64,000 nt of DNA from an uncultured Candidatus Saccharibacteria bacterium (GCA_964617815.1 CAZTXY010000003.1:473-64472); one strand, 5' to 3'; numbered from the stretch's first letter, positions 20,110 through 41,177 are shown. Notes: a model not told the origin generated them from the letters alone. Numbers and translations are program-made.

Positions 20110-20179
20110 TTTAAGTTGCATTGACCGGCCAAGTTTTTTAAACTTGGTATTCTGATGTTTCGAATTTGGAGGATTACAC

Positions 20180-20533: not shown

Positions 20534-20541
20534 AGATGTGA

Positions 20542-20590: not shown

Positions 20591-20673
20591 AATTAGTTTA
20601 AAATTGACTTATCGGTCTTAGAAGATTATGGTTGAGTTGAGGGGTTGAATTTTTTGATGAAGGGGGAAGGACA

Positions 20674-21039: not shown

Positions 21040-21198
21040 TTCCTCGCCGCACTCATTCTTCTTGAGCCGTTCTTGTTTCACCTTCGGGTGGGATGAGGGC
21101 GGCTTCTTTGTTTACAAAAAAACAGCGCCGTGTCCCACCGGTGAAGGCGGGGCGTGCGCTGTGTTGCGAAGTGTCATGAAAGCTCAAGTCAGGGAAGC

Positions 21199-22347: not shown

Positions 22348-22517
22348 GTCTGCCTCCAGTTTTTGCCATTTCTGGCTGTGTCTTCCGACCACATAGTATC
22401 TTTTATTTATTGAGTTTTGTCAATACTTTTTGTGAAGAGCGAGGCTTTTCTTTTGTGCTCTTGCAATATATAATAGGTTCCTAGTTAAACTAGAAAAAAA
22501 TCCGCAGGAGGACACAC

Positions 22518-25496: not shown

Positions 25497-25681
25497 ACAG
25501 ACCTCCTTGGGCAGTAGCACGCTTTTATCATACAAGGTTTCGCTTAGTTTAACTAACTCTTGACATTGGCATGTAAAGTGCTCCAACTCGCATGCTATAA
25601 TAAAAGACTTTGGCAAAGGTCGTGCCAAATAAACTTATTTTTTTGAGATTAAATTTGAAAAAACTAATAAAAAGGACATAT

Positions 25682-27268
25682 ATGAAAACAACAAGCAAAC
25701 TTTTAGTGTCTGGTGGAGCGGCGCTAATTATGGTTTTAGGACTGTTTGGTTCACAAACAGCTCTTGCGGTAGCTCCTCTCCCTGCTCAGTGCCCGGGCAG
25801 TTTGGGCGACTATAATATTATTGAGGGAACATCTGCTAGCCAAACTTTGAATGGTACAGCTGGCAATGACTACATTGTTGGGAATGGTGGCGCTGATACT
25901 GTAAAAGGAAATGGTGGGAACGACTGTGTGGTAACTTTAGGCGGCGCCGATAAAATTACTACAGGCAGTGGTGACGATGTTATTTTAGCCGGTGGAGGTA
26001 CCAACACCATAAATGCAGGTAACGGAAATAACAAAGTTTACACTGGTGATGGCGCCGACACTATTACCACTGGTAGTGGTGACGATGTTGTTGAGGCCGG
26101 TGGTGGAGCTAATAAAGTTACCACTGGTGCTGGAGAAGACACTGTTACTACAGGAGATGGTGCAGACAACATTAAAACGCAGGGCGGTAACGACGTAATT
26201 ACCTCTGGAGCCGGTGGTGATATTATCGACGGTGGGACAGAATGTGATATTATCGACGGTGTTACTGATGACTTTGCATGTGATAACACAGTTCCAGAAG
26301 CGACAATTACTTTAGGTAGCCCAATGTATATTAGTGGCCCAAACATGTACATCACAAGTGCAACTCCTGTAACTGTAGACGTTGTTGATGACTTTGGTCT
26401 ATGGTTTTGTGAAATTTCCTATACCGGTCCAGGTGGGACAACCTTTGTGAAGGGGAGTGTTCCATGTCCTGATGATCAGTATGTATTTATGTTAGTTGGT
26501 CCTGACGGAACTTACACTATTGATGTTAACATTGCCGACTATGGCGACAATACAGACAATGCAACTAAAACAGTAATTCTAGACAACACTGCTCCTGTTA
26601 TTAGTATTGCAACACCTGCTGATGAATCTGCTCATGCACAAGGTGCTGTGGTAAATTCAGATTTTTCTTGCAGTGATGCCGCTAGTGGTGTGGCAACTTG
26701 TGTTGGTACTACCCCAGATGGTAGCCCAATTGACACAGCAACTCTTGGTGCAAAATTATTTACTGTGAATGCCTCAGATAACTTAGGTAACTCTTCTAGT
26801 TTAACCAACGACTACAGCGTGGCTTACGGCTGTAACGGGTTAGTGGCGACAATTCTTGGTGACGGTGGTATCAACTTTTTAGTGGGAACTTCCGGTGACG
26901 ATGTCATTGTCAGCCTCGGTGGTTTTGATACTATTATCGGTAATGGCGGGAATGACACCATTTGTAGTGGCGATGGACCTGACTTAGTTTTTGGCAGTAA
27001 TGGTAATGACTGGGTAGATGGTGGCGAGGGTGATGATACCATTTCAGGTGGTAACGACAATGACACTATTTATGGTGGAGGTGGAAACGATATTATTGGT
27101 GGGAACGATGGAACAGACAGTTTGTTTGGTGGTCCAAGCGGAGATGTTATTAGTGGTGGTAGTGGCAATGACACTATCGACGGTGGTGATGGCTTTGACT
27201 TCATTAACGGAAATAGTGGCACTGACACTTGCACAACTGGTGAGAATTTGACCAGTTGTGAGATTTAA
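25682..27268 (+). CDS. Secreted RTX-type beta-roll (hemolysin-type calcium-binding repeat) protein
   Basis: Sec signal peptide (MKTTSKLLVSGGAALIMVLGLFGSQTALA). Two blocks of 9-residue xGxGxDxUx repeats, for example TGSGDDVIL AGGGTNTIN AGNGNNKVY TGDGADTIT, about 20 units in total. Confidence 0.7.
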   Translation: MKTTSKLLVSGGAALIMVLGLFGSQTALAVAPLPAQCPGSLGDYNIIEGTSASQTLNGTAGNDYIVGNGGADTVKGNGGNDCVVTLGGADKITTGSGDDVILAGGGTNTINAGNGNNKVYTGDGADTITTGSGDDVVEAGGGANKVTTGAGEDTVTTGDGADNIKTQGGNDVITSGAGGDIIDGGTECDIIDGVTDDFACDNTVPEATITLGSPMYISGPNMYITSATPVTVDVVDDFGLWFCEISYTGPGGTTFVKGSVPCPDDQYVFMLVGPDGTYTIDVNIADYGDNTDNATKTVILDNTAPVISIATPADESAHAQGAVVNSDFSCSDAASGVATCVGTTPDGSPIDTATLGAKLFTVNASDNLGNSSSLTNDYSVAYGCNGLVATILGDGGINFLVGTSGDDVIVSLGGFDTIIGNGGNDTICSGDGPDLVFGSNGNDWVDGGEGDDTISGGNDNDTIYGGGGNDIIGGNDGTDSLFGGPSGDVISGGSGNDTIDGGDGFDFINGNSGTDTCTTGENLTSCEI

Positions 27269-27790: not shown

Positions 27791-28059
27791 AACTTAACCT
27801 TTCATTAGTACTAAGAATTATCAATTAGTATAATCTTATTGCTAAAAATTAGCAAGAGCAGTTTTTCAGTTAAATCGGTAGGGCTTTTCATAGGGTTTTC
27901 AAAGTGCTAGAATGTAAAGTCATTGCTTTGTGAAGCAATGATTATTGAGACAAGAGCCTTGTATATAAACTTCTTTTTGTATTTAGGACTCTTCGCTTCA
28001 ATAGAGCAAAGTTTTCGCCGAATAAAGTAGGTGATGTAAAATATTTTGATTGCAGGAGG

Positions 28060-28692
28060 ATGACGCCGATGACCAAGAAGTCATTGACCCCGTCTCAAGC
28101 AAGGCCAGCAGAGGCCAAGATCGATAAACTTTGCGACCGTGTTCGCGCGGCTGCACGGAAGTCGGGAATACCCGATGACCGTTTCCAGTTGGGACTGGAG
28201 GTGCCTGGTACTGGACTTGAGGATGACATCCTTAAAGTGCTTACCAGCTATATCAGGAAGGCCTCTAGTCTTGTTGTTCCGTCTCGGGCTCAGGACACAG
28301 GGCTTGTTCCGGAAGGATGGGCAGTCTGGTCGGATGAAGTTGAGAATGACGTCTGTTTAGCTCAGCTCGACTTTTGCTACTCACCTTGCGCTTGGAATGA
28401 AGAATACATCTACCATGATGCGATGCTTGAGCGCGTCAAAGCCGCAAAGACTTTGGGAAGCCTGGGGTTGGCCAAGATCATCCTTGATGAGCAGAAAGCC
28501 GGTAGACAGATAATACCGGTGAAGCTACAAGGAAAGAAGACCATTCTCTTTCCCAAAACCATTATTGTCCACGCTGGTGGCGACCATTGTTTGGCCTCTA
28601 TGCCATGGTACGAGGGGAAGTGGTATTTGGAGTTCATTTGGCTCGATAACTCTTTCAATTCCTCCATGGTGGTTCCTCGCGAGCACCAGTAG
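28060..28692 (+). CDS. Hypothetical protein, 210 aa (GC-rich island)
   Basis: SD aggagg. GC-rich. Its own terminator at 28714-28755. Confidence 0.5.
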   Translation: MTPMTKKSLTPSQARPAEAKIDKLCDRVRAAARKSGIPDDRFQLGLEVPGTGLEDDILKVLTSYIRKASSLVVPSRAQDTGLVPEGWAVWSDEVENDVCLAQLDFCYSPCAWNEEYIYHDAMLERVKAAKTLGSLGLAKIILDEQKAGRQIIPVKLQGKKTILFPKTIIVHAGGDHCLASMPWYEGKWYLEFIWLDNSFNSSMVVPREHQ

Positions 28693-28713
28693 ACCTTGGT
28701 AATTTGGTCTTTT

Positions 28714-28755
28714 GCCCGACAGAAATGCTTGCATTTCTGTCGGGTGTTCTGTTTT
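28714..28755 (+). terminator. Intrinsic terminator (cccgacagaaatgc ttgc atttctgtcggg then tgttctgttttt)
   Basis: 13-bp stem followed by a T-tract. Confidence 0.65.
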
Positions 28756-28894
28756 TAAAAAAGATATTAGCAGGCTTGACTTTTTTGAGTTCTTGGCGAT
28801 AACATCTTAAAGTAGTGCTATAATAAAAAACTTTCCGGAAAGTCTGGAGAAATTTGCAGTACACAGAAAAAGTTTAAAAAAGTCAAAATTTATT

Positions 28895-30349
28895 ATGAAG
28901 CTAAAAGTCCTATTATTATGCACCGTGCTAATTCTGATTGCCTATGTGGTCTGGTTATTTTTCCACGTCACAGGCCCATTGGGTTGGCTTTTTTTTGTGG
29001 TGGAAGGGTCCATCTCTCTTTTGCCACTATTATTTTTAATTAATCACTGGACTCAGCGTCACGTTCATAAGTCGAGTTATCCACCAGTTGGTAGCGTGGA
29101 TGTGTTTATCACGGTGGTCAATGAACCGTTAGAACTTTTTGAACCAGTCTTACGTTCTTTGTCACGAATTACGTATGAAAATAAAAAAATATATGTGCTA
29201 GATGACGGTGGGCGAAGTGCAGTAGAAAGTTTAGCTACCCAGTATGGCGCGACATATATTTCGAGAGCCGACAGACCTGCTTTCTACAAAGCGGGAAATT
29301 TAAATAATGGCTTGTTGGTATCTAGTGGCGATTTTATTTTAGTTATAGACGCTGATCAAGAAGTTACTAACCCATACATTTTAGACGAGCTCTTGGGCCA
29401 TTTTATAGAAGACTCAAAACTGTCCTTGGTCGCCACTCGCCAGTCCTTTGTAACTCCACCCGAGGACTTTAACCACGACATTTTATTTTACGAGCATATC
29501 CAAACCGGAAAAAACGCTAATAACGCTGCCATTTCCTGCGGATCAGGTGTTATCTATCGCCGTAGTAGTTTAGATGTGATTGGCGGGTTTCCAACCTGGA
29601 ATATGGTAGAAGACTTATACACGTCTTACAAACTTCACTGTGCCGGTTTTAAAAGTTTGTATGTAAATAAAATTTATACAAAAGGCACTGCGCCTTTGGA
29701 CTTAGCTGATATTTATAAACAACGTGGCACCTGGGGGCTAGACACAATGCGTTTGTTTGTAAAAGACAACCCATTGTTTAAGCGGTCACTCTCTTGGCGC
29801 CAGAAACTTCATTATTCTGAGTTGGCTGTGACTTACGCAATTTCGGCAGTCTGTATTCCGCTGTTATTTCTCATGCCTGCAATCTCGTTGTTGTTTGGCC
29901 TGCAAGCAGTGACGGATATTTATGGTTATTCTGCTTTTCGTGTGCCGTCTTTAATCATGCTGTTAATTTTTTATTACTATGTGTGTGGCAAAACTTTTGT
30001 AGCTGGACAATTTTGGGCTGGCTTATTTCCAGCTTATTTTAAGGGCTTAGTCTTTGCAATTATGCCGGGCAAGCCTAGTTATAAAGTAACGTCTAAAGTT
30101 TCAAGTGGTGGCCGTCATCTCCGCCAGATAATTCCGCATTTAGTTTTGGTTTTCTTTTCTTTTGGTTCAGTGTTGTGGTACGTAGCGAGTAATGGCTGGG
30201 ACAGCATTGTTTTGTTTACTTTTGTTATTCAATTTTTGATGGTCTTTTGGCTCTACCCGATTATTATACGTGGGCTATTTGGGGTTCCTAAACTTCGAGT
30301 TGAAATCGAGCCAGAAAAACTTGGCGCTGTCGCAACCCAGCGCAATTAA
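28895..30349 (+). CDS. Membrane-embedded processive family-2 glycosyltransferase (cellulose/chitin/PNAG synthase-like)
   Basis: Two N-terminal TM helices, a GT-A catalytic core (DDGG, DAD, a QRGTW variant of Q(Q/R)xRW) and four or five C-terminal TM helices. Confidence 0.7.
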   Translation: MKLKVLLLCTVLILIAYVVWLFFHVTGPLGWLFFVVEGSISLLPLLFLINHWTQRHVHKSSYPPVGSVDVFITVVNEPLELFEPVLRSLSRITYENKKIYVLDDGGRSAVESLATQYGATYISRADRPAFYKAGNLNNGLLVSSGDFILVIDADQEVTNPYILDELLGHFIEDSKLSLVATRQSFVTPPEDFNHDILFYEHIQTGKNANNAAISCGSGVIYRRSSLDVIGGFPTWNMVEDLYTSYKLHCAGFKSLYVNKIYTKGTAPLDLADIYKQRGTWGLDTMRLFVKDNPLFKRSLSWRQKLHYSELAVTYAISAVCIPLLFLMPAISLLFGLQAVTDIYGYSAFRVPSLIMLLIFYYYVCGKTFVAGQFWAGLFPAYFKGLVFAIMPGKPSYKVTSKVSSGGRHLRQIIPHLVLVFFSFGSVLWYVASNGWDSIVLFTFVIQFLMVFWLYPIIIRGLFGVPKLRVEIEPEKLGAVATQRN

Positions 30350-30524
30350 ATTAAAAAGTCTAGTAAGTGATGACACCTGTGCTATAAATAGAGCACCTCT
30401 TTTAAGCTTGCACTAGACAAAAAAGAGCAAAAGGAGTAAGTTATTAAGTTATGGTTTGTGGCTTGGGTGGAAGGGGGCCGAGGCCAAAAGCCTTTTGGAG
30501 ATGGAATTTTTCGGAGGAGTCGTC

Positions 30525-31181
30525 ATGGCAAACATTGTCACAGGCGAACAGTACTACGAGCTGGATGGTCAGCTGGGCGAGATCAAACGTCAGTTGCGTC
30601 AATTGAGTGGCTATCCTTTCAGTGTGGACGGTCTTCGGGTGGCTCTTCAAGACGTGATTGAGGGTCATTTCGTCAGTAAATTGTGGCGCGAGGAAGATGG
30701 CGTCATCTACTTTTCTGTTACTTCCGACGGAACAACCGGCGAGGGCTGGATCAGGCGTCTAGAAAACAATGGTTTTCTTGTTGGAGGGCATGCCAAGCAG
30801 TCGCTTTGTTCGCCTAAATTCAAGCCGACCAACGGGGTAACGACTGAAGTTGGGGTTATCTGTGGCTCGATCTTCGAGGACGACGACCGCATCGCGAGAA
30901 CGATCCGTGGAGAGGCAGCCAATCGCAAGTTCAGAAGGCCCAAGGCCGAACTGTCCTGCCTTATCCGTGAAAAGTTTACGGATGAGGAGATTGAAGCAAT
31001 GGGTTTGTCGTACATCAATGTTATGCACGAACCTATCAAAAACTTGGAGGGTATTCTGACCTTGCTTCAAGTGAGCTGCCAGGGTAATGGCGAGCTCATG
31101 GCGGGTAGTGGTAGTCCTGACTTTAAGTGGATTCGTGGCGGCGGGTTCGCATTCGCCGTGTCGGAAGCAGTCACTTTCTGA
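30525..31181 (+). CDS. Hypothetical protein, 218 aa (GC-rich island within the glycosylation cluster)
   Basis: SD ggagg, 7 nt, then ATG (MANIVTGEQY...). The composition is strongly GC-rich compared with both flanking genes. Confidence 0.5.
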   Translation: MANIVTGEQYYELDGQLGEIKRQLRQLSGYPFSVDGLRVALQDVIEGHFVSKLWREEDGVIYFSVTSDGTTGEGWIRRLENNGFLVGGHAKQSLCSPKFKPTNGVTTEVGVICGSIFEDDDRIARTIRGEAANRKFRRPKAELSCLIREKFTDEEIEAMGLSYINVMHEPIKNLEGILTLLQVSCQGNGELMAGSGSPDFKWIRGGGFAFAVSEAVTF

Positions 31182-31203
31182 TAGGAGAACATAGGACTTT
31201 TTG

Positions 31204-31266
31204 ACCCTCTGAAACTTTGCTTTGCCTCTAGGCAGATGCAAAGTTTCAGAGGGTCTGCATTTTTAT
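31204..31266 (+). terminator. Strong intrinsic terminator with 18-bp perfect arms (gaccctctgaaactttgc...gcaaagtttcagagggtc then tgcattttt)
   Basis: Read directly from the sequence. Confidence 0.7.
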
Positions 31267-31294
31267 TAGCGACATTTTCAATCACTTTTTCTTT

Positions 31295-32563
31295 TTGTTG
31301 GCGCGGGGTACAATAACTCTATATATGCTTAATAATATCAAAACATTTTTACAGCCGAATCGGAAATTTATTGGCAATAGTTTTATTGCGCTTATTGGTA
31401 CAGGACTAATAGGTTTCTTTAATTTTGCTTTTCATTTTTACACTGCGCGGCAATTTTCTTTGTCAGAATATGGCGAGTTGCAATCACTCCTTGCTTTGCT
31501 AACAATTTTTTTAGTTTTCGCCACGACAATTAATTATGTCGTGATTAAAGAGTCCTCCAGCAAGACTTTTGCTGCTCAACTACTTCGTAAAAAAACTTAC
31601 CTCTGGTCATTTGGATTAGCGTTTGCCTTAGCAATTAGTTCACCATTGATTGCAACATATTTGCAGCTTCAAAGCCCAGTTGGTGTGCTGTGGGTGGCCG
31701 TGGCAGTTTTGTTTTCCACAGTCACAGGTTTTTACAGTGGCCTTTTGCAATCCGCGCGACGTTTCAGTTCTTTTTATGGAGTACAAATTGTCTCAGTTGT
31801 TTTAAAGTTGGTCGGTGCAGCGCTTGTAGTCTGGCTGGCCTTAGATAAATCTTGGACTTTGGCCGGGGTTGCTGTTGCCGGCGGTGCTGGATATTTATTT
31901 GCTGTAATATTTTCGAGGCTTAGTCGGCGCGATGAATCACAAGTAATTTCAAGTTTAGAATTACCAAATACACAACAAGTCATCCTACCAATTTTTTTAT
32001 TTGCTGCGCTTTTGGCGTTACTTTCTAATATAGACGTTGTGATGTTCAAGCATATCGCGACCAGTGAACTAGCTGGCGCTTACAGCGCCTTAAAAGTTAT
32101 TGCTTCAACTGTTTTGGTAATTAATACAGCCATCATCTCTGTGGTTATTCCGTATGCAGTTAGCTCCAGCCAAGAGCAGGGAAGAGTCCATTATTCCCTA
32201 GTTACTATGGCTTATGGCTTAATTGGTTTAATTTCGCTTTTGTTTGTTGCTGGTTTTGCAGTTTTTGCTGAGCCAATTATAGCCTTGCTTTTAGGTGAAA
32301 AATATGTTTTAATTAGCGGCTGGCTATGGTTGTTTGGTTTGATGTCAGCTGCTCTGTCGCTTCTGATGCTGGAAGCTAATTTGGCCTACGCGCGCCACCG
32401 TTTTGTGGTCAATTATATATTGGCAGGTGTGGCAATTACAGTGTTAGTTGGGGCCTACTTTATAGAGACAACTATCCCGGCTTTTGCTTCGCTTGTCTTA
32501 CTGGCAAGTTTTACTGGGTTTGTGTGCTTATGTTTTGACTCTTATGTTATAAGTAAAAAATAA
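31295..32563 (+). CDS. Polytopic membrane protein, MOP-superfamily flippase-like (Wzx / polysaccharide biosynthesis protein family)
   Basis: About 12-14 predicted TM helices in 422 aa. Sits in the glycosyltransferase cluster. Confidence 0.6.
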   Translation: MLARGTITLYMLNNIKTFLQPNRKFIGNSFIALIGTGLIGFFNFAFHFYTARQFSLSEYGELQSLLALLTIFLVFATTINYVVIKESSSKTFAAQLLRKKTYLWSFGLAFALAISSPLIATYLQLQSPVGVLWVAVAVLFSTVTGFYSGLLQSARRFSSFYGVQIVSVVLKLVGAALVVWLALDKSWTLAGVAVAGGAGYLFAVIFSRLSRRDESQVISSLELPNTQQVILPIFLFAALLALLSNIDVVMFKHIATSELAGAYSALKVIASTVLVINTAIISVVIPYAVSSSQEQGRVHYSLVTMAYGLIGLISLLFVAGFAVFAEPIIALLLGEKYVLISGWLWLFGLMSAALSLLMLEANLAYARHRFVVNYILAGVAITVLVGAYFIETTIPAFASLVLLASFTGFVCLCFDSYVISKK

Positions 32564-32569
32564 ATTTCA

Positions 32570-33508
32570 ATGGCGCGACTGGTTACTATTGTTATTCCAT
32601 TTTACAACGAGCAGGATAATTTGCCTGTATTGTTAACCGAGGTCTCAAAAACCATGAATACGCTTGCAGAAATTGACTGGCAAGTCTTGTTAGTAAATGA
32701 CGGTAGCACTGACAATAGCAGTAACGTCATCGTAGAGTTACAAAACCAGTATTCAAATTTGCAGTACTTGGAATTTTCACGGAATTTTGGCAAAGAAGCT
32801 GCGCTGTCTGCTGGCCTTCACGGGGCTTCTGGAGATGCAGTAATTATGATGGATGCGGACATGCAACACCCTCCAAGCTTTTTGCCAGAATTAATTAAGG
32901 CTTGGCAAGCTGGTAGTGAAGTGGTTGTGGGAGTGCGAAAGCAAAGCTCAAGTAATAATCTTTTTAAAAAAACTGGTGCGAAATTCTTTTATTGGTTGAT
33001 GAATCAGATAAGCAGTGTAGCCATGGTCCCACACGCTACAGACTTTCGCTTGTTAACTAGAGAAGTTGTTGAGGCTTTTTCTCAACTTTCAGAAAAACAG
33101 CGCTTGACTCGTGGATTGATTGATTGGCTTGGTTATAAAACTTTATACGTGACATTCGATGCACCAGCTCGAAACTACGGGCAGTCACATTATGGTTTTT
33201 TTAGTCTTGTGGGATTAGCATTGCGCGCAATTGTTAGTCAAAGCTTATTTCCACTTCGGATAGCTGGTTATTTAGGAGCAAGCATTACAATTTTATCTGG
33301 AGTTTTTGGTATTTTTATATTTGTTGAAAAATATATTTTGCATGATCCATGGAATTTAAATTTTTCTGGGCCGGCAATTTTAGCTGTTATAAATCTATTT
33401 TTGATTGGGATTGTTTTGTCTGCTTTAGGCTTAATTGCGTTGTACATTGCTTCAATTCATGGCGAGGTAATTGGCCGCCCACTGTATGTGATTCGTAAGC
33501 AGAAGTGA
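32570..33508 (+). CDS. Polyprenyl-phosphate glycosyltransferase (GtrB/ArnC/DPM1-like GT2)
   Basis: Motifs IVIPFYNEQDNL, VNDGSTDNS, FSRNFGKEAA and DAD, plus two C-terminal TM helices typical of GtrB. Confidence 0.75.
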   Translation: MARLVTIVIPFYNEQDNLPVLLTEVSKTMNTLAEIDWQVLLVNDGSTDNSSNVIVELQNQYSNLQYLEFSRNFGKEAALSAGLHGASGDAVIMMDADMQHPPSFLPELIKAWQAGSEVVVGVRKQSSSNNLFKKTGAKFFYWLMNQISSVAMVPHATDFRLLTREVVEAFSQLSEKQRLTRGLIDWLGYKTLYVTFDAPARNYGQSHYGFFSLVGLALRAIVSQSLFPLRIAGYLGASITILSGVFGIFIFVEKYILHDPWNLNFSGPAILAVINLFLIGIVLSALGLIALYIASIHGEVIGRPLYVIRKQK

Positions 33509-33532
33509 CGCCGAGTATTAAAATAGACTCTA

Positions 33533-36500
33533 ATGTCCGAAAAACCTTTAATTTCAGTGATAATGCCAGCACACAATGCTGGCTCATACATTGCAAGCGC
33601 CATCGACAGCATTTTAGCGCAGTCGTTGGCTGATTTTGAATTAATAATCATTGACGATGGTAGTTCGGATACTACTGGCCGAATAGCGGTGGATTACGCG
33701 AGTCGTGATTCGCGCATAAAAATTATTGTAAATCAAAATAATCGTGGTGTTGCAAATAGTCGTAACAGGGGGATACAGCAAGCATTAGGGCAGTATATTG
33801 CTTGGCAAGATGCAGATGACATTGCTATGCCAAATCGACTTAAACTACAGTTTGACTTTTTAGAGACGCATCCAGAAGTGGGAATGGTGGGCGGGAGTTT
33901 GGAATTTTTTGATCAAAATGGAACTAAAAGTCTCCGAGAATATGAGACAGAGGATGCTAAACTTCGGGCTAAACTTTTTCGTTATCAAGCAGTTAGCCAG
34001 CCCGCGGGCATGGTGCGCAAAGTTTGTTTTGCCACAGCTGGGTTATTTGATGAAAGTTTAGAAACAGCTGAAGATTTAGATATGACTTTTCGCATTGCCA
34101 GAACATGGAAGCTGGCAAATATTCCTGAGGTGGTGATTAAATATCGGATGAACACGGATTCCCTGACTTATAAACGATTAAAAAATTTAGAGCAGAACAC
34201 TTTTCGTATTCGAGCAAAATATAAGGGTGAAAGCGCTTTTAATTATAGTGTCGGCGATCTCTTTTATAATATTTTGCAAAAACTGTCGTTGCATTTAATG
34301 CCACCTGCATTTCGCATTTGGTTATTTAGTAAGCTGCGCAACAAAAAAGCTCAGTCTCAAAAAATAATTTTTGCATGTCATAGTTATTACCTAGACAGTG
34401 GAGCAATTATTGATTCGCATCGAAACTTAACTTTTACTTTTTTGGACCGCTACTATCCGAATGGCTATGCGGTCTTGCGGCATAGTCTATACACGGGCGG
34501 AGAATCACGCATTTATAAGCAGGGGATTGACGGGCCATTTTGGAAAATTCCAGTGATTGGTAAGCTTCCAAGCTTTTTGCGTTACTTTGCTGAAATAAAA
34601 ATTAATTTGTTGTATTTGTTAGTTCAGTTAGTGCGTCACAACATTACTTTTATTGCCATAGATCCTCTGTCTGCTTGTGGGGGAGTGATTTTAAAACGCC
34701 TTGGTTTTTCGGTAAATGTTATTTTTATTACTCCAGATTTTGCGCGGAAGCGTTTTGAAAATAAAATCTTGAATCAACTTTATTTTAAGCTTGATAAATT
34801 TGCCACGGTTTACTCAGATATAAATTATTGCTCTGCGCAGACTGTAATTGATTATAAAAAAGAGTTGTATGGAGAAGTTTTGTCAGACAAACTAGTCCAC
34901 ATGCCAAACAGTCCTGCACCGTGGTTAGTTGAACCGTTGCGCGGAAGTGCAAAAACGCCATATCGCTGTGTCTATGTTGGCGATATTGGTCAACAGCTAG
35001 ATTTTAAAATGATTTTTTCTACTTTGGAAAAACTCAAAGCAGAATTCCCAGAGATCCATTTGCAAGTGATTGGAGATGGCGAGAAAAGGGAGGAGCTTGA
35101 GGCATGGGTCAAAGAGCAAGGCTACACTACCATCAAATTTCTTGGCCATGTGACATATGAAAAGGCGCTCTATCAAATTGCTACAGCAGAGGTTGGACTA
35201 GCGCTTTATAATGGGCAGCTTAATTTTGATGAGTTCCGAGACTCAATTAAAGTTCGCGAGTATCAATCTCTCGGAACAATTCCAATTGCTTCGAGTAGCG
35301 CAGTAGCCAGTGCAAATGAAATCGTTTCGTATGGCAGTGGCGTGGTTATTAAAAATACAGCAGAAGATTTATTTTTGAGTTTGCAAAATATTTTTTGTGA
35401 CCGACAAAAATCTGCAGAAATGATGCGTGCCTGTTTGAGAAATTATAGTGTTTACCGAAATATTTTTGATCAGTTATACCAGAGAACTCAAGTTTTGCAA
35501 AAAACTTCAGTATCTCAAACTGCAAAACCGGCCCGAGGGCTGTGGATTTGGGCGGTGGTGGGTTTAAATTTGCTGGCGGTTGGCTTTTTATTCATAACTC
35601 AACTGCAAGTTATGCGAGGCCATAATTTAATTGGCTTAATAGACCAAGGTTTTATGGAACTTAATCCGACTTTTCAGTTAGCTCGTAATTTATTTGTTTG
35701 GGATTCGACACGTGGGCTTGGTGAGTCACAATTTTTGTTTGTGCCTTCTGGTTTAGCGGAAGCTTTTTATGTTTATTTACTGTCTTGGGTGTCACCGAGC
35801 TTTTCGGTTTTAAGTTTTTTAAAGATATTTCTGCTCCAGTTGGCTTATTATGCGGGTGGCTTCATCACACTCGCTACATTTGTAAAATATGTGCTTAAAA
35901 AGTCGCTTACGGCTCAGATGCTCTCTGTCGTGTCCTTATTTAGCTTGCTTGGTATTTTAAATTTGCATTTTTTCCAAAGCTCAAGCGCTTTTTTGTTTAA
36001 TCAGCGTTACGATTTGTTCATTTTTAGTTTACTATTTTATAGTGTTAACAAAATTGGTTATGAGAAAAAAGGCTATGGGTTGTTTGTTTTGTCCTCACTG
36101 CTCTCGATTGGTTGCTGGACTTACATTGGTTTTTGGTTACCGTTTGTGTTGTTTTTGATTGCTTATGCTTTTTTAGTGCTTCGAAAATATAAAACATTGA
36201 TAGCTCTAGCTGTGCTTCATTTTTTACTGATTTTACCCGCAATAGTTTCCTTAGCTTTATTTTATAGTCAGGTTAATCCTGTGGCTAATACAGCCATTAG
36301 CTATAAGGACGTGATTTTTGACTATGCCAATCGAAATTCGACACTTAACCATATTACTGCCTTAATTGGCGGGGTAAATTGGGATTTGGCTTGGGGTTGG
36401 TTGCCAGGTGCTTTGGCTTATCCCTATGTTGCGCTGTTTGGACAGTGGCACGCGGGGCTGTTAGCTATGGGAATTTTTGCTGTATTTTTAATCGGGCAGA

Positions 36501-37810
36501 TGTTTGTAAAGAATGTTCCAAAGTCTGTTGTGTTGTGGTTAAATGGGACAGTTATTGTTTCTATATTTTTAATTGCCAGTTACAATAAACCTTTTGGCAA
36601 ACTTTTTGTGTGGTTGCTGAATAACTTTCCATTATTCATAGTTTTTCGTGAGTCACATAATAAAGTTTACCCAGTATTAATTTTAGCTTTGTTATTGGCT
36701 GGGCTGGCTGGGTTTATTGCGTCATCAGGGAAAGTTAAAAAAGCCCTAGCTGGTTTTTTAATAGTCTACTGCGGTGTCTTTTTATATGCAGGACTGCACT
36801 ACGGAATTTTGAGTCAACAAGGCGCATTTACTTTTCCAAACCAAACTTATCAAGCCCTCACTTCAACTATTCCGGAAGGCTCTCGTGTGCTTTGGCTTCC
36901 AGAATATTCATATGCCAAACGCTATAGTTATGGTTATGCTGGAAATACTATTACAAGATATGCTTTGCCATTTCGGCAGTTTGATATTTCCTATTTATTG
37001 GAGCGCGGGTTTCATAATCCGCTGACTCGCTCTATTCTCGACAACTTCAATTATGAGATTTATCCAAAAGGTCTGTATAATTTTGGCCTGCAACAGCCAT
37101 CTTTTGATGGTAATTTACTGAACCAAGGCAATATTCAGTACGTCATTTTTGATAAACAACTTATTGGGGACACTACCATTGTGCCTTTTGTGCAAAGTTC
37201 TTTATATCTTGGAAGCCTGAGAGCTGTAGAAAATTTAGAGGTAGTGTTAGAGGATGAGAATTTTGTGGTTTTTAAAAATAAAATTTCACAACCAGTTTTG
37301 CTCGCAAAAAATAGTCAGGTCAAGCAAAAGAGTCCGGTAGAATATCAAGTTTTAATTAAAGGACTAAAGGAGCCTACTGACCTAAGCTTACTTCAGGGTT
37401 ATGATGCTGGCTGGGCAACTGCATTTATGCCAGTAAATGCGGATTTTGATTGTCCGATTTTTGAAGAGCTTACTGCTTTACAGACAAAAGTTTGTGAAAA
37501 TAAAGATTTTTCTACATCTTTGTTTTCTACGATACGCTATAATTTTAGCGATGATTTGTTAATCAGTAGTCACAGCACATTTGAGGGATATGCGAACCGT
37601 TGGCGTCTTGACCCTGAAGTTTTAAAAACGCAGCTGCCAGAAAGTTCGTGGCAAGCCAATCCAGATGGAGGAATAGACGTTCTGTTGGTTGTTTACTATA
37701 AACCCCAAGCGCACTATTATGCCAGCTGGTTAGTCGCAATTTTAACGGCTTTAGGAATTTTTAGCTGGCTAGTTTATAGAAAATTTAGGCATAGAATTAA
37801 TAATTTATAA
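33533..37810 (+). CDS. Giant multidomain glycosyltransferase: N-terminal GT2 (GT-A), a central GT-B-like region, and a C-terminal polytopic membrane domain of about 650 aa
   Basis: ISVIMPAHNAGSYIASAIDSILAQS...IIIDDGSSDTT...QDADD marks the GT2 domain. The C-terminal half is almost entirely hydrophobic helices. Confidence 0.7.
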   Translation: MSEKPLISVIMPAHNAGSYIASAIDSILAQSLADFELIIIDDGSSDTTGRIAVDYASRDSRIKIIVNQNNRGVANSRNRGIQQALGQYIAWQDADDIAMPNRLKLQFDFLETHPEVGMVGGSLEFFDQNGTKSLREYETEDAKLRAKLFRYQAVSQPAGMVRKVCFATAGLFDESLETAEDLDMTFRIARTWKLANIPEVVIKYRMNTDSLTYKRLKNLEQNTFRIRAKYKGESAFNYSVGDLFYNILQKLSLHLMPPAFRIWLFSKLRNKKAQSQKIIFACHSYYLDSGAIIDSHRNLTFTFLDRYYPNGYAVLRHSLYTGGESRIYKQGIDGPFWKIPVIGKLPSFLRYFAEIKINLLYLLVQLVRHNITFIAIDPLSACGGVILKRLGFSVNVIFITPDFARKRFENKILNQLYFKLDKFATVYSDINYCSAQTVIDYKKELYGEVLSDKLVHMPNSPAPWLVEPLRGSAKTPYRCVYVGDIGQQLDFKMIFSTLEKLKAEFPEIHLQVIGDGEKREELEAWVKEQGYTTIKFLGHVTYEKALYQIATAEVGLALYNGQLNFDEFRDSIKVREYQSLGTIPIASSSAVASANEIVSYGSGVVIKNTAEDLFLSLQNIFCDRQKSAEMMRACLRNYSVYRNIFDQLYQRTQVLQKTSVSQTAKPARGLWIWAVVGLNLLAVGFLFITQLQVMRGHNLIGLIDQGFMELNPTFQLARNLFVWDSTRGLGESQFLFVPSGLAEAFYVYLLSWVSPSFSVLSFLKIFLLQLAYYAGGFITLATFVKYVLKKSLTAQMLSVVSLFSLLGILNLHFFQSSSAFLFNQRYDLFIFSLLFYSVNKIGYEKKGYGLFVLSSLLSIGCWTYIGFWLPFVLFLIAYAFLVLRKYKTLIALAVLHFLLILPAIVSLALFYSQVNPVANTAISYKDVIFDYANRNSTLNHITALIGGVNWDLAWGWLPGALAYPYVALFGQWHAGLLAMGIFAVFLIGQMFVKNVPKSVVLWLNGTVIVSIFLIASYNKPFGKLFVWLLNNFPLFIVFRESHNKVYPVLILALLLAGLAGFIASSGKVKKALAGFLIVYCGVFLYAGLHYGILSQQGAFTFPNQTYQALTSTIPEGSRVLWLPEYSYAKRYSYGYAGNTITRYALPFRQFDISYLLERGFHNPLTRSILDNFNYEIYPKGLYNFGLQQPSFDGNLLNQGNIQYVIFDKQLIGDTTIVPFVQSSLYLGSLRAVENLEVVLEDENFVVFKNKISQPVLLAKNSQVKQKSPVEYQVLIKGLKEPTDLSLLQGYDAGWATAFMPVNADFDCPIFEELTALQTKVCENKDFSTSLFSTIRYNFSDDLLISSHSTFEGYANRWRLDPEVLKTQLPESSWQANPDGGIDVLLVVYYKPQAHYYASWLVAILTALGIFSWLVYRKFRHRINNL

Positions 37811-37811
37811 C

Positions 37812-37879
37812 CGTCATCCTGATCCGCCTCCGGCGGAGAAGGATCTCTGAGATGCTTCATTTCACTCAGCATGACAGTG
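37812..37879. repeat. MITE/REP-like palindromic element, copy R4 (an R2-like core in inverse orientation with an internal 26-bp hairpin insertion)
   Basis: gtcatcctgatccgcctccggcggagaaggat is the reverse complement of the R2 core, followed by ctctgagatgcttcatttcactcagcatgacagtg. It begins right after the stop codon of the giant GT. Confidence 0.65.
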
Positions 37880-37892
37880 CTCGATAGATAAT

Positions 37893-39515
37893 ATGTTTAA
37901 GAGCTTATTCCAAAAATATAAATCAACAATACCTTATTGGGCAGTGGTTTTGGCCATTGTTTTGCCATGGTTTTTAGGGTCTGGGTATCTCTTTTTGACT
38001 GATTATGTCTGGGGTCCAGTGTTTCCGCTTCATTGGGGAGAGCCTGATTTTTTGTTTAATTTTACTTTCTCAATGTTTGGCTGGGTGATATCTTCGGCTT
38101 TTTTACAAAAATTGTGGCTGACAGCAGTTATCGCCTTATTACTTTTTGGCGGACGGTTTTTAGCCAAACAATTTTTAGACAAACCCCTCGTCATTTTTGG
38201 TGCTAGTTTGATATTTTTGTTTAACCCCTTTGTTTACGACAGGCTTCTTTATGGGCAAGTTTTTGTTGTGGCCAGCTTAGCCAGTTTGGTTTGGCTTACG
38301 GGTTACTCTGTGACTTGGTTAAAAACTTTATCGTATAAGTCTGCTAGTCAGATGGGTGTGTGGATTGCGCTTTGTGTTTTGTGGTCGCCACATTTTGTGT
38401 TTATAGTAGGATTATTTCTAGTAGCTTTATTTAGTGCGGTCATAGTAAGTCGTGGAGTTAGTAAAAAACTTTTCTACCAGATAGGTCTAATTATTTTTAT
38501 GACGTTGCTGTTAAACGCAAATTGGTTAGTAGCTACAACCCTTGGCCAGTCACGCGCCACTGAGTTTGCTCAAACTCAGATTGGCCGCCAAGATTTTGAA
38601 GCGTTCCGAACAGCTGGTAATAGCACAGGTCAGGTTATTAGAAATGTGCTCCAATTATCTGGATTTTGGGGGAAGGATCAGTACCGCTACGCTGATTTAG
38701 CTCAAAACAAGACCAATTGGGGAAGAAGCTTTATTTTATTAGCACCTTTGATCATTTTTGGTTTCCTTGGTTTGATTCGAACTAAGGAGACTCGAGTATT
38801 GGGATTGTTGTCTATGGTGGTAGTAGTTGTTGCGACGTTGTTGTCACTTGGGCTTGGTACGCCATTTTCAACTAAACTAACTTATTGGCTGTTTGAACAT
38901 ATTCCGTTTTATGGCGGTTTGCGTGATACTCAAAAATGGAGCGCGCTTCTCGTGGTTGTCTATGGACTATGGTTTGCCTTTGGACTGAAAGCTTGGCAAA
39001 AGCTTTCTGTGGTTAAGAATCAGTTTGTCGCTTTGCATATTATTCTGGCCATTTCAATTGTGCTTTGGGCTCCACTATTATTATGGGGTTTTTGGACGCA
39101 AGCAAAGCCTCACTCATACCCAGAGAGCTGGTACCAGGCAGATCGTCTTTTAGTGAGCAATGGCTGTAGCGGTCAGACTCTGTTTTTGCCTTGGCATTTG
39201 TACATGAGATTCTCGTTTACCGATAGTGTGGTGGCAAACCCAGCAAAGCGTTTTTTTAGATGTCCCACCCTTTGGGGCACCAATCAGGAATTTGGGGGGA
39301 TAGATGACAATAGTGGTGACCAAAAAAGCCAAGCAATTCGTGCTTGGTTGGCAGATCTTGGCCAAAAACCGCATATTTTAAAGGAATTAGACATTCAGAC
39401 TGTGGTTGTCGCCAAAGCCGGTGATTGGCCAAATTATTCCTGGGTCTCAAAGTTGCCGTATTTGATTAAGATGGAAGACAGCACTGAGCTGACTGTTTAT
39501 CAGGTTAAGCCATAA
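37893..39515 (+). CDS. Polytopic membrane protein, candidate GT-C-type glycosyltransferase
   Basis: About 14 TM helices and a soluble C-terminal domain. Cluster context. Confidence 0.5.
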   Translation: MFKSLFQKYKSTIPYWAVVLAIVLPWFLGSGYLFLTDYVWGPVFPLHWGEPDFLFNFTFSMFGWVISSAFLQKLWLTAVIALLLFGGRFLAKQFLDKPLVIFGASLIFLFNPFVYDRLLYGQVFVVASLASLVWLTGYSVTWLKTLSYKSASQMGVWIALCVLWSPHFVFIVGLFLVALFSAVIVSRGVSKKLFYQIGLIIFMTLLLNANWLVATTLGQSRATEFAQTQIGRQDFEAFRTAGNSTGQVIRNVLQLSGFWGKDQYRYADLAQNKTNWGRSFILLAPLIIFGFLGLIRTKETRVLGLLSMVVVVVATLLSLGLGTPFSTKLTYWLFEHIPFYGGLRDTQKWSALLVVVYGLWFAFGLKAWQKLSVVKNQFVALHIILAISIVLWAPLLLWGFWTQAKPHSYPESWYQADRLLVSNGCSGQTLFLPWHLYMRFSFTDSVVANPAKRFFRCPTLWGTNQEFGGIDDNSGDQKSQAIRAWLADLGQKPHILKELDIQTVVVAKAGDWPNYSWVSKLPYLIKMEDSTELTVYQVKP

Positions 39516-39520
39516 GTTTT

Positions 39521-40159
39521 ATGAATAAGACAAAACTAAAAATTATAGCTAGATTGACCGCAGACTACATAGCCTCTTACTTCGGTTATATTTTTGTGGT
39601 CTATATTGTTTGTATTTTTTTAGCAACTACAGTTCCATCGACCCGCGCATTTTTTTACTGGCCAGCATTTCATGTAACAGTTTTTATTTTTGGAATCATT
39701 ACAATTACCAGTCCGCGTTTTATCGCTCTACTTGGTCGCCCGCAGTTTATATTAGAGTCGCTTCGCAACTGGTATTTTGGGTTCGGATCTCAGCCTAAAT
39801 TAAAATTATTTTTGTTAGTGCTAACTCCAGTGCTATTAATGATTTTTCAAGTTTCTATTTCAATGTTGTTGTTTGGTTTTGCCAGCGCATTTATTTTACT
39901 GCGAACTTCCAAAGTGGTTTATCCACTCGCGCTGTCGCTGGCATGTTTTCTAGTTGGGCGCTTGCTTAGCATCTCAGGGCAGGCTCGAGCAGGGAGTTGG
40001 TCTGAGTTTGGGTATTACTTTTTGATTCTTTCTGCGCTTGTTAACTTACGACCTTTTCAGTCTAATATGACCTTTTTTCAGGGGTTATTTAAACGTCTTG
40101 GCAAAGGGGAAAACGTGGGGAAAAAAACATTTGACAAAGTTCAAAGTCCTGAGATATAG
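39521..40159 (+). CDS. Membrane protein, hypothetical
   Basis: Five or six TM helices. Directly downstream and co-oriented. Confidence 0.45.
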   Translation: MNKTKLKIIARLTADYIASYFGYIFVVYIVCIFLATTVPSTRAFFYWPAFHVTVFIFGIITITSPRFIALLGRPQFILESLRNWYFGFGSQPKLKLFLLVLTPVLLMIFQVSISMLLFGFASAFILLRTSKVVYPLALSLACFLVGRLLSISGQARAGSWSEFGYYFLILSALVNLRPFQSNMTFFQGLFKRLGKGENVGKKTFDKVQSPEI

Positions 40160-40310
40160 TTAAGTACTCAGCAGACGCAGGGACGAAGAAAAAGTTTGAG
40201 GAAAAAATTAGGATCAAATAAATAAACAACACACAGCTCGCTTAGAAAATAGCGAGCGTCGTCGTAACCTCAGCGTCAAATTTAAGAAGTAAGAATGAAA
40301 TCAAATAATT

Positions 40311-41177
40311 ATGAATAGCAGAATTCAGAAACTCAAAAATTATTTTAATCAGGAACAGAAAGTTGCAAAGACACTGTCTTCAGTAGTTTTAGTTTTTGCG
40401 TTTATGGCAGTTGTCATGCCAGCGCTTGCTGACTTTGTGTTGCAAGATGATAACTCATCCTGTGGTTATGGCTACGGCTACGGCTATGGCTATGGTTATG
40501 GGTATGGCTACGGTTACGGTTACGGCTGTGACGGTGGCGGTGGATCTTTGATTGTAGATCCTGGTGTAACTAAGACCGTTGACAACGGTACTCCTGCTCC
40601 AGGCGCAACAATTGTCTACACTATCACTGCACATAACTTTGGTAGCACAACAGTTAACGACGTGACTGCCACAGACAGTATCCCAGCTGGGATTACCTAC
40701 GTCAGTCATACACTCACTCAAGGTGTCTATAGTAATGTCACTAGCATCTGGAATGTGGGCACCCTTACCTCTGGTGGGGACGCGACTTTGACCATTACGG
40801 CTACCGTGGATGGTTCCACTGTTGGAACTGTAATAAACACAGTTACAATTACCGGTTCTATCCCAGTTGACCCAAATAGTGCCAATAATACAGCATCTGC
40901 CAATATTGTAGTGACTACATCTGGCGGCGGTGGTGGCGGAAATACAGGCGGCGGCGGTGGTAGTACTGGTGGTGGCGGTGGTAGTACTGGTGGAGGTAGC
41001 AATGACGGAAGTGTTTTGGGAGATAGTACAGGGCCAACTGTAACCCCTCCAACTGGCCGAGTCCTCGGAGACAGCACTTTACCACGAACAGGCTTAGCAG
41101 TAACTTTAGTTCTTACCCTAGTTGCAGTTTCATCTTTAGCCTTTGTTTCTAGAGGTAAAGCAGTTAAAGCAGAGTAG
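40311..41177 (+). CDS. LPXTG-anchored surface protein with a (GY)10 repeat, a DUF11-like repeat domain and a poly-Gly linker
   Basis: Signal/TM N-terminus, YGYGYGYGYGYGYGYGYGYG, the DUF11-like block TVDNGTPAPGATIVYTITAHNFG...VTATDSIPAGITYVSHT, then LPRTG followed by a hydrophobic stretch and an RGK tail. Confidence 0.7.
   Translation: MNSRIQKLKNYFNQEQKVAKTLSSVVLVFAFMAVVMPALADFVLQDDNSSCGYGYGYGYGYGYGYGYGYGYGCDGGGGSLIVDPGVTKTVDNGTPAPGATIVYTITAHNFGSTTVNDVTATDSIPAGITYVSHTLTQGVYSNVTSIWNVGTLTSGGDATLTITATVDGSTVGTVINTVTITGSIPVDPNSANNTASANIVVTTSGGGGGGNTGGGGGSTGGGGGSTGGGSNDGSVLGDSTGPTVTPPTGRVLGDSTLPRTGLAVTLVLTLVAVSSLAFVSRGKAVKAE
40464..40526 (+). repeat. Hexanucleotide microsatellite (GGYTAY) repeated about 10 times, encoding the GY repeat
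   Basis: ggttatggctacggctacggctatggctatggttatgggtatggctacggttacggttacggc. Confidence 0.7.

Follow-up and report, generated by a model that had tools for sequence, protein, structure and literature searches.

What do the seven genes between positions 28895 and 40159 of a 64,000-nucleotide stretch of an uncultured Candidatus Saccharibacteria genome (GCA_964617815.1, CAZTXY010000003.1:473-64472; the whole stretch is referred to here as the window) do for the cell envelope, and do all of them belong to one system? A preliminary description, made from the sequence alone, had treated them as a single envelope glycosylation cluster, and the seven plus strand open reading frames (ORFs) that it listed, here g1 to g7, were recovered at the same coordinates. 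Our analysis divides them. Genes g3 to g7 form one operon, tightly packed with intergenic gaps of 6, 24, 82, and 5 nt, from which g1 and g2 are set apart by a strong hairpin. We infer that the g3-g7 module is probably an undescribed cell-surface glycosylation system of the candidate phyla radiation (CPR). The best explanation overall, to which we give a probability of roughly 0.6, is that a lipid-linked sugar would be made, flipped across the membrane, and then transferred extracytoplasmically by two glycosyltransferases (GTs) of the GT-C fold. The analysis itself shows the protein folds, outer-loop residues that are conserved, the layout of the operon, and the module's synteny; the features of the module are as follows (TM, transmembrane).

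31326 to 32563, plus strand: g3, MOP/Wzx-type flippase (Polysacc_synt_3, Polysacc_synt); the ORF opens with a TTG at 31295
32570 to 33508, plus strand: g4, GtrB/ArnC/PgfS-like polyprenyl-phosphate GT2 (PF00535, 6.7e-31), with two C-terminal TM segments
33533 to 37810, plus strand: g5, 1425 aa, GT2 + GT-B + GT-C
33533 to 34252, plus strand: g5 domain 1, cytoplasmic GT2 (GT-A), EpsE/TuaG/WcaA-like (PF00535, 1.8e-35, aa 8-137; EpsE, 6.7e-37)
34565 to 35419, plus strand: g5 domain 2, cytoplasmic GT-B, GT4-like (Glycos_transf_1, 1e-8, aa 473-629)
35513 to 37810, plus strand: g5 domain 3 (g5C), predicted AftD-like GT-C (AlphaFold2 model, Foldseek, family profile)
37893 to 39515, plus strand: g6, 540 aa, polytopic, predicted MmpA/AftD-like GT-C (AlphaFold2 model, Foldseek, NCBIfam MmpA)
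39521 to 40159, plus strand: g7, small membrane protein of 212 aa with about five TM segments, conserved partner of g6

The argument for extracytoplasmic transfer begins with g6 and the C-terminal domain of g5. The AlphaFold2 model of g6 was built on an alignment of 39 g6 homologues (A1), and the g5C family was represented by a profile of its own (A2). When the g6 model (predicted local distance difference test, pLDDT, 87.5; predicted template modeling score, pTM, 0.90) was compared with the PDB by Foldseek, the best match was AftD (6W98; E 1.8e-8, TM-score 0.61), followed by STT3, AglB, PglB, AftA, DPY19, ArnT, and Pmt4; the top 20 matches were all GT-C, and transporters appeared at probabilities of 0.2 or lower only. 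The model of g5C, the C-terminal 765 aa of g5 (pLDDT 89.5, pTM 0.90), also found AftD 6W98 first (E 1.9e-9) and then STT3, PglB, and ArnT, its top 11 matches all being GT-C. For both models nothing but GT-C enzymes stood below AftD down to an E of about 1e-3. The models thereby place g6 and g5C among GT-C folds of the AftD/MmpA type. The preliminary description had proposed GT-C fold recognition for the products starting at 33533, 37893, and 39521, and had named matches to non-glycosyltransferase families such as permeases, along with a lack of conservation with surface-protein genes in relatives, as the outcome that would speak against glycosylation. The first product's C-terminal half and the whole of the second are predicted GT-Cs and not permease-type proteins; the third, g7, has no recognisable relationship to the fold. 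The membrane domain of g5, previously given as about 650 aa, in fact has about 765 aa: the TM region accounts for about 435 aa and the extracytoplasmic domains for about 295, and a C-terminal TM segment closes the protein. From its N-terminal end the domain runs through TM1, a loop bearing Asp704, and about 11 TM segments to extracytoplasmic domains of alpha/beta and beta-sandwich type and the final TM segment.

By profile-profile comparison the two GT-C families are distant paralogues, as hhalign joined them at 99.6% probability (E 1.6e-23) over 463 columns that include the outer C-terminal domain. The relationship is visible by this type of comparison only, and BLASTP of g6 against g5C gave an insignificant E of 0.059. 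The homologues of g6 (273 scored, about 540-580 aa, about 40% identity) are all annotated as hypothetical and nearly all are without a Pfam domain, and those for which a source is named are from Patescibacteria, which, together with the named homologues of g2, places the window in a CPR genome. Members of the g5C family are stand-alone proteins of 715-790 aa, with 391 cluster representatives at E <1e-3. The g5C family profile (A2) reached AftD by sequence (E 1.3e-3), PDB sequence searches with g6 or its family profile returned no match, and those with g5C alone returned noise only. No Pfam model covers either CPR family; PF11847 (GT-C_AftD) matched none of the window proteins and gave weak matches to two of 33 g5C relatives (best 3.4e-4) and to one neighbour gene.

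The pattern of conservation in these families is what would be expected of enzymes. Asp37 of g6 (nt 38001-38003) is invariant in 39 sequences and Asp704 of g5 (nt 35642-35644) in 33; both follow TM1, sitting 6-16 residues past it, with the N-terminus on the positive side or that of the cytoplasmic domains. This loop is, as judged from the topology, predicted to be the first extracytoplasmic loop, and D37 and D704 would then be the acidic residue that is a hallmark of GT-Cs. The g6 family additionally holds the invariant loop motifs FNPFxYDR (aa 110-117) and SGFWGKxQxRYxD (aa 256-268), together with R344 and K348, and a loop motif (F/L)R(E/D)xxxK is common to the two families, FRExxxK of g5C aligning with LRDxxKW of g6. 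These features suggest that both families are catalytic. That the donor would be linked to polyprenyl phosphate is suggested circumstantially by the presence of g4 in the operon and of its relatives in 10 related loci.

The closest named sequence family to g6 is MmpA (NCgl2761/Rv0226c; NF053599), which is similar to it in size and topology, and this relationship raises the question of whether g6 and g5C are enzymes at all. In NCBIfam the model is entitled 'MmpA family trehalose lipid delivery protein'; g6 matches it over aa 58-538 at 1.7e-35, with 122.6 bits where the cut-off is 210, and among 33 g5C relatives it has three matches, the best at 2.1e-12. MmpA mutants show a defect in the transport of trehalose mycolates, and the protein has no demonstrated catalytic activity (PMC8698533). 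Both CPR proteins might by this precedent be non-enzymatic, MmpA-like scaffolds or lipid-delivery factors that aid lipid or glycolipid export, a reading we regard as quite improbable because the aspartate of the first outer loop is kept in both families, g6 has long invariant loop motifs, and g6 and g5C travel with a GtrB-like sugar-lipid synthase. CPR bacteria, as far as is known, lack mycolic acids, which leaves no trehalose mycolates for a role of the MmpA type, so the part that MmpA plays in trehalose-mycolate acetylation and transport cannot apply in them. Moreover, MmpA is itself possibly a glycosyltransferase by Foldseek (bioRxiv 10.64898/2026.07.31.741767).

The resemblance to AftD, the arabinofuranosyltransferase D of mycobacteria (PDB 6W98, 6WBX), extends to a GT-C core of about 11 TM segments with an outer alpha/beta domain, and to the essential first-outer-loop aspartate, D41 in AftD; K361 of AftD may correspond to the common R/K motif. 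AftD differs in its size of about 1400 aa, its 16 TM segments, its three carbohydrate-binding modules, and its helical bundle that binds acyl carrier protein (architecture from bioRxiv 10.1101/2019.12.22.885152), whereas g6 has 540 aa and g5C has 765 aa with a single C-terminal TM segment. AftD takes decaprenyl-phosphate-arabinose as donor and arabinan as acceptor, both of which are specific to Mycobacteriales. MmpA is encoded in a conserved locus with aftD, just as g6 adjoins g5C, and NCgl2761/Rv0226c was reported to be partly homologous to the first 668 aa of AftD and stated to have no homology outside corynebacteria and mycobacteria (Cashmore et al., PMC8698533). No genes of the tmaT, mtrP, aftD mycolate locus were found in the window. 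We conclude that g6 and g5C are relatives of AftD and MmpA that by models, size, and locus are members of neither family. The CPR families extend the AftD/MmpA clade far beyond Actinobacteria, into a distant phylum without mycolic acids.

The second line of evidence is the conservation of the module. A set of 44 genome loci with g6 relatives, together with loci obtained via contig look-ups, gave 45 unique loci (cited below by L numbers), whose ORFs were searched with per-gene profiles. A g5C-family GT-C gene lies 5' of the g6 homologue on the same strand in 29 of the 45, often overlapping it by 4-91 nt, and the family is present in 24 of the 30 loci that have at least 3 kb of upstream sequence. 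The g7 homologue follows the g6 homologue directly in 35 loci (median gap 5 nt) and precedes it in none. A MOP flippase lies between the g6 and g7 homologues in 12 loci, and a g4-like GT2 (E 1e-58 to 1e-106) is found 2-9 kb 5' of the g6 homologue in 10. The order conserved in CPR is accordingly GT-C, GT-C, sometimes a MOP flippase, g7, and a secreted protein. That the module adjoins a secreted-protein gene even in distant relatives bears out the earlier expectation that the cluster would be conserved together with surface-protein genes. Homologues of g1, of a sortase, of a 1272-aa protein, and of two secreted proteins of about 200 aa, all of which are encoded near the module in the window, were found near g6 homologues in none of the 45 loci. 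Our searches of the literature found no work tying CPR to AftD, GT-C, DUF11, protein glycosylation, or a GY leader.

Some loci carry further genes within or beside the module. In L004 (1-3384) and L007, which lie on the same Falkowbacteria contig, the module comes directly after phosphonate-biosynthesis genes for a phosphoenolpyruvate mutase with a CTP-transferase-like domain, a thiamine pyrophosphate-dependent decarboxylase, and an iron-type alcohol dehydrogenase, which hints at phosphonate-decorated glycans in some CPR. In L003 (1863-7987) the two GT-C genes are separated by genes for a 1560-aa CotH/beta-helix protein, a protein with a VTC domain, and a DUF4956 protein.

How a cytoplasmic assembly step might be coupled to transfer on the outer face is suggested by g5. 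This protein had been described as a GT-A domain fused to a membrane domain; both are present, and a Glycos_transf_1 GT-B domain at aa 473-629 had been missed. The single polypeptide of g5 thus carries all three glycosyltransferase folds, a GT2, a GT4-like GT-B, and a GT-C. Elsewhere these parts occur separately. Stand-alone orthologues of the GT2 domain were identified in L029 (277 aa, 4e-72) and L021 (273 aa, 1e-64, matching g5 aa 1-271), and stand-alone GT4-like homologues of 380-387 aa match g5 aa 345-628 in L021, L025, and L037. The 273-aa GT2 gene of L021 is followed directly by the 387-aa GT4-like gene, with a g5C-family gene further down the cluster, and in L029 and L012 the GT2, GT4, and GT-C are likewise separate neighbour genes. 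This arrangement suggests that g5 arose by the fusion of three adjacent genes of the module.

One full-length counterpart of g5 (P0001, 82% identity) was found in a search of 5.8 billion proteins, on the syntenic contig L001, and a search of 1.84 billion representatives added only a further, 93%-identical g5 fragment; the whole-protein search was swamped by multi-GT2 proteins. Because these two sequences were the sole finds, we consider the reading frame of g5 to be real and conserved, within close relatives only. GT-C proteins begin in the cytoplasm, and the GT2 and GT-B domains of g5 should therefore lie inside and the Asp704 loop outside, in which case one polypeptide would span the membrane with cytoplasmic assembly and outer-face transfer tied together. 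Domain fusion is recurrent in the module, the form that joins GT2, GT4, and GT-C being seen only in the clade of the window. Other multi-domain GT2 fusions, of 693-1122 aa, are encoded directly 5' of GT-C genes in L034 (3913-5994), L009 (1872-5237), L023 (4564-7137), and L046 (6251-8917).

The other genes of the operon bear on the earlier steps of such a pathway. The flippase g3, whose ATG at 31326 agrees with the gene start in L001, matches PF13440 (1.5e-10, 41.3 bits against a cut-off of 23) and PF01943 (33.5 bits against 28.2) and has about 12-14 TM segments, with fourteen hydrophobic peaks. Over its full length g4 matches the NCBIfam models for PgfS (3.7e-67, 226.7 bits against a cut-off of 500) and ArnC (2.7e-48), in both cases below the equivalog cut-off, and its TM segments lie at aa 234-252 and 270-288. 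Neither g7 nor its family profile matched anything in Pfam, PHROG, or the PDB, NCBIfam likewise had no match for g7, and GtrA (PF04138) matched neither g7, nor any gene of the region, nor any of 25 g7 homologues. Of the three-component logic of Gtr type proposed in the preliminary description, the GtrB-like GT2, the flippase, and the GT-Cs stand; the flippase is not of the GtrA type, so the module is no strict Gtr system. In the pathway that we propose, modelled on the known action of GtrB/ArnC-type GT2s, MOP flippases, and GT-Cs, g4 would load a monosaccharide derived from a nucleoside diphosphate sugar onto polyprenyl phosphate at the cytoplasmic face of the membrane. The GT2 and GT4 domains of g5 would build or extend a lipid-linked glycan, g3, and possibly g7, would carry the lipid-linked sugars across the membrane, and g5C and g6 would pass the sugar on from its lipid carrier to an acceptor on the extracytoplasmic side.

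A candidate for that acceptor is encoded directly downstream of g7.

40311 to 41177, plus strand: (GY)n-leader protein, secreted and wall-anchored (signal peptide, (GY)10, DUF11, G/S/T-rich linker, LPRTG, TM tail)

In this product the (GY)10 repeat is encoded at nt 40464-40523, the only occurrence of the GY motif across the six frames of the window, and LPRTG at nt 41079-41093; the DUF11 match is at 1.9e-29, and a promoter-like site (11/12) precedes the gene at 40131-40160. A gene resembling it lies downstream in 32 of the 45 loci. Similarity to the equivalents in distant loci is limited to the N-terminal 75 aa or so, a shared leader that opens with a signal peptide whose n-region is conserved and continues with a site of cleavage type (AQF or ALA), xRQ(T/D)G, (GY)n, and DGG, with the consensus KIKxFxFSExKLAxAIFGFLV...FGPNxYAQF, xRQTG, (GY)4-9, DGG. 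The linkage to the module is position-specific: among 1542 six-frame ORFs in the 45 loci, 32 hold (G[YF])x3 or longer, and 30 of these are a same-strand gene 70-5300 nt 3' of g6 with the repeat at aa 43-86 (for example, L007 14189-15688 and L029 12541-14136). The passenger domains that follow the leader vary, being DUF11, Ice-binding-like, fn3, PG_binding_1, Ig-like, or none. Proteins at this position contain 21% Ser+Thr, compared with 10.5% in all ORFs of more than 200 aa. No description of a (GY)n leader was found in the literature searched.

Two other descriptions of these proteins were considered and set aside. DUF11 is not their common feature, being absent from Pfam scans of ten such downstream proteins, and a type IV pilin-like leader (K-G/S-F-x-F-S-E, Glu +5) was rejected on the grounds of charged residues after the Glu and an ordinary AxA/AQF signal-peptidase site past the hydrophobic core. 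The leader can bear very large passengers, the (GY)n-leader gene of L040 (12251-21439) encoding a protein of 3062 aa.

Within the best explanation, the likeliest acceptor is this co-encoded secreted (GY)n protein, or a glycan built on it, because of the position-specific linkage to a conserved leader and the precedent of the Pgf system; we offer this assignment tentatively, as it falls somewhat short of an even chance. The preliminary description had pointed to the neighbouring surface-protein cluster as a source of candidate acceptors; the gene of it that is conserved is the one directly after g7, and the 1272-aa protein and the sortase are found in close relatives only. What that gene has in common with distant loci is the (GY)n leader, and neither DUF11 nor LPXTG. 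In the Pgf system of S. mutans, PgfS (GT-A) and the GT-Cs PgfM1 and PgfM2 glycosylate wall-anchored adhesins of their own cluster (bioRxiv 10.1101/2024.05.05.592596). The module resembles Pgf (PgfS, PgfM1, PgfE, PgfM2) in having a GtrB-like GT-A and two polytopic GT-Cs beside wall-anchored surface proteins. It differs in that PgfM1 and PgfM2 are GT-Cs of the YfhO type, whereas g5 and g6 are of the AftD/MmpA type and have no YfhO Pfam match. Pgf is also without a fused GT2/GT4, a MOP flippase, and a g7, and the acceptors in it are disordered, Ser/Thr-rich regions instead of a (GY)n leader. The Gtr system of O-antigen glucosylation (GtrA, GtrB, GtrC) and the CsbB/GtcA/YfhO system of teichoic-acid glycosylation share the same logic, in which a GT2 supplies a polyprenyl-phosphate sugar that a flippase brings across for a GT-C to transfer on the outside; unlike them, the module has a MOP flippase and a protein of about five TM segments instead of GtrA/GtcA, and two GT-Cs, one of them fused to cytoplasmic GTs. 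By analogy, the module appears to work in the manner of Gtr/CsbB-YfhO and Pgf, while belonging to neither.

A more specific and bolder proposal is that of a phylum-wide system in which the two GT-Cs and g7 act on the tyrosines of the (GY)n repeat, placed at the N-terminus of a mature, dedicated secreted protein, either in O-glycosylation or with the protein serving as primer or anchor for a glycan. We hold this version to be unlikely. We know of no GT-C that glycosylates tyrosine, and the tyrosine O-glycosylation of S-layer proteins is, to our knowledge, carried out by WsfB, which is no GT-C. Such a modification is as such known in S-layer proteins (PMC2943079).

Several further points weigh against protein glycosylation by the module. 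MmpA, the nearest characterised relative by sequence, is without proven catalysis and was named as a trehalose-lipid delivery factor (PMC8698533), and AftD, the nearest solved relative, acts on polysaccharide and not on protein. The essential residues of AftD are K39, D41, E251, K361, and D474; the first-loop aspartate is conserved in the CPR proteins, whereas the candidate catalytic D474/E475 align with N/T in g5C, in what is a weak hidden Markov model alignment. The small membrane protein g7 is without an assignable role. The combination of cytoplasmic GT2 and GT4 domains with a Wzx-like flippase is seen more typically in glycopolymer assembly, the 64-kb window was found to hold no priming phosphoglycosyl transferase, and the synteny with the (GY)n protein could reflect glycan binding rather than modification.

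The last of these points lead to an alternative that is tenable, if on the whole a minority prospect, namely that the module makes a wall glycopolymer or lipoglycan in the manner of AftD/Emb. A lipid-linked precursor would be built by the GT2 and GT4 domains along with other cytoplasmic glycosyltransferases and exported by the MOP flippase, and on the outside the GT-Cs would extend or branch the polymer with the polyprenyl-phosphate sugar made by g4, leaving the (GY)n protein unmodified and binding the polymer, being anchored by it, or priming it. The best solved match of both GT-Cs is in keeping with such a scheme, as AftD has an arabinan acceptor and carries carbohydrate-binding modules, and the outer part of g5C holds beta-sandwich domains. 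Other CPR clusters hold many GT2 and GT4 genes and methyltransferases, and L004 and L007 hold the genes for phosphonate synthesis. Surface-layer proteins, moreover, are often encoded beside the genes of their anchoring polymer. A polymer would, however, call for enzymes that the window does not offer, no polymerase, ligase, or priming transferase having been recognised in it. The (GY)n protein already bears wall anchors, LPRTG here and PG_binding_1 elsewhere, and its position-specific linkage to the module through the leader, in 30 of 45 loci, is tighter than is usual for pairs of ligand and receptor. For these reasons we prefer extracytoplasmic transfer by two GT-Cs, with the (GY)n protein as its tentative target.

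There remain the genes around the module, beginning with those at its 5' side that had been counted as part of the cluster and followed by the sortase gene on its 3' side.

28895 to 30349, plus strand: g1, cellulose-synthase-like GT2, 484 aa, six TM segments (BcsA alignment)
30525 to 31181, plus strand: g2, member of a Patescibacteria-wide family of variable (target) proteins of diversity-generating retroelements (DGRs), by its homologues; variable region (VR) at about 31020-31150
31203 to 31255, plus strand: hairpin with T-run 3' of g2 (-41.6 kcal/mol, z = -8.35)
47100 to 47696, plus strand: sortase (PF04203, 5.7e-21)

The g1 product aligns with residues 274-650 of E. coli BcsA, that is, the GT2 core and TM channel region (E 7.5e-34), and has the motifs DDG, DAD, CGS, and VED (for TED), with QRGTW replacing QxxRW. 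It is BcsA-like without being a BcsA equivalog: it scored 186.9 bits against TIGR03030, for which the cut-off is 699, and neither a PilZ domain nor a BcsB-like partner was seen. These BcsA core motifs in a gene on the same strand and 1 kb upstream could be taken to mean that the whole 11 kb is one exopolysaccharide cluster around g1, which would make a cellulose-like polymer, with all else accessory. To this we give hardly any credence, since the unrelated g2 and the -41.6 kcal/mol terminator lie between g1 and g3-g7, and no g1 homologue accompanies the module in the 45 CPR loci. GT2s of the synthase type, moreover, move their product out themselves and depend on neither a Wzx flippase nor a GT-C. 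The 'processive GT2' of the preliminary description consequently drops out of the cluster, and g1 is probably a unit separate from the conserved module. The separation is made by the hairpin, whose 18-bp inverted repeat arms (31203-31220 and 31238-31255) are followed by a T-run and which is an intrinsic terminator isolating g1-g2 from g3-g7. The terminator with 18-bp arms and the Shine-Dalgarno sequence of its own that had been ascribed to g2 were both found, the latter as GGAGGAG before the ATG at 30525.

The same description had called g2 foreign on account of its base composition. Its GC content is 0.518, against 0.385-0.417 in the six neighbouring genes; housekeeping genes of the window reach 0.55-0.59, and g2 at 0.52 is no outlier there. 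Local GC peaks of 0.50-0.59 occur at window positions 8001-9000, 20001-24000, 52001-53000, and 60001-61000, the genome mean being about 0.43, and several are conserved metabolic genes (orotidine monophosphate decarboxylase, dihydroorotate dehydrogenase, PurH, adenylosuccinate synthetase). Because several peaks coincide with such genes, high GC alone is no marker of foreign DNA here. We instead find g2 to be native to CPR: it has no Pfam or NCBIfam family match and more than 1200 homologues in Patescibacteria at 50-60% identity, and it belongs, by its homologues, to a family of DGR variable proteins. Many of these homologues are on contigs of about 1 kb, which is consistent with assembly breaks at variable regions.

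The assignment to DGRs comes from L052 and L053, where a second copy of the last 134 nt of the g2 homologue lies 330 nt further downstream, adjacent to bAvd and to an RVT_1 reverse transcriptase (RT). In L052 the VR lies at 6523-6656 and the template repeat (TR) at 6990-7123, and in both loci VR and TR differ by 24 mismatches, of which 21 fall on adenines in the copy nearer the RT (TR), a repeat pair that has the signature of a DGR. A C-type-lectin fold is typical of DGR targets. In contrast to the L052/L053 homologue with its VR/TR pair, bAvd, and RT, no RT, Avd, or TR copy of g2 was found within the 64 kb of the window. Compared with its homologue in L055 (5186-5833), where the g1-g2-g3 order is kept, g2 is about 67-87% identical in the body, about 50% in the VR, and 90-100% at the 3' end and hairpin; the stretches flanking the VR are at 85-100%. 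Divergence confined in this way to the VR supports past diversification of g2, or diversification in trans, and the copy in the window would be an 'orphan' DGR target whose VR is hypervariable relative to a close relative. The hairpin itself is nearly identical in L055 despite the diverged VR immediately 5' of it, and may have an additional role as a DGR target-site hairpin. As the genes surrounding g2 homologues vary between loci, we regard g2 as a passenger between two units that stands outside the pathway.

Upstream of g1, a segment of about 900 bp (27866-28768) holds a 210-aa ORF (28060-28692) that has no Pfam or PHROG match and is followed by its own terminator (28713-28746); in L055 the segment is replaced by 15 nt, an indel just 5' of g1. 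Further upstream, and kept in L055, a 552-aa protein (25610-27268) bears nine stretches of RTX calcium-binding nonapeptides (HemolysinCabind, 4e-46) and weakly matches Big_3_3. PHROGs gave no match for g2, g7, or two hypothetical genes upstream. On the other side of the module, the LPRTG protein is probably anchored by the sortase. The interval from the (GY)n gene to that of the sortase encodes the two secreted proteins of about 200 aa (41798-42400 and 42476-43075) and the 1272-aa protein (43224-47042), which has a C-terminal TM segment and an LAQTG-like motif; all three are without a Pfam match and are conserved in close relatives only (L001, L006).

The CPR, or Patescibacteria, are ultrasmall episymbionts whose surface mediates attachment to the host, and how that surface is built and decorated is barely known. 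Few conserved envelope systems of several genes are legible in CPR genomes; the module described here is one of them, and every CPR member of it is annotated as 'hypothetical'. Its (GY)n leader provides a concrete, testable acceptor or partner, and the fusion of GT-A, GT-B, and GT-C in g5 is a natural experiment that joins cytoplasmic and outer-face steps of a pathway. The abundance of AftD/MmpA-like proteins in CPR also bears on the function of Rv0226c, which is essential in M. tuberculosis. Should the tyrosines of the (GY)n leader prove to be the target, the AftD/MmpA clade of GT-Cs would gain its first activity directed at protein, and at tyrosine, and this would argue that the essential mycobacterial MmpA is also a glycosyltransferase.

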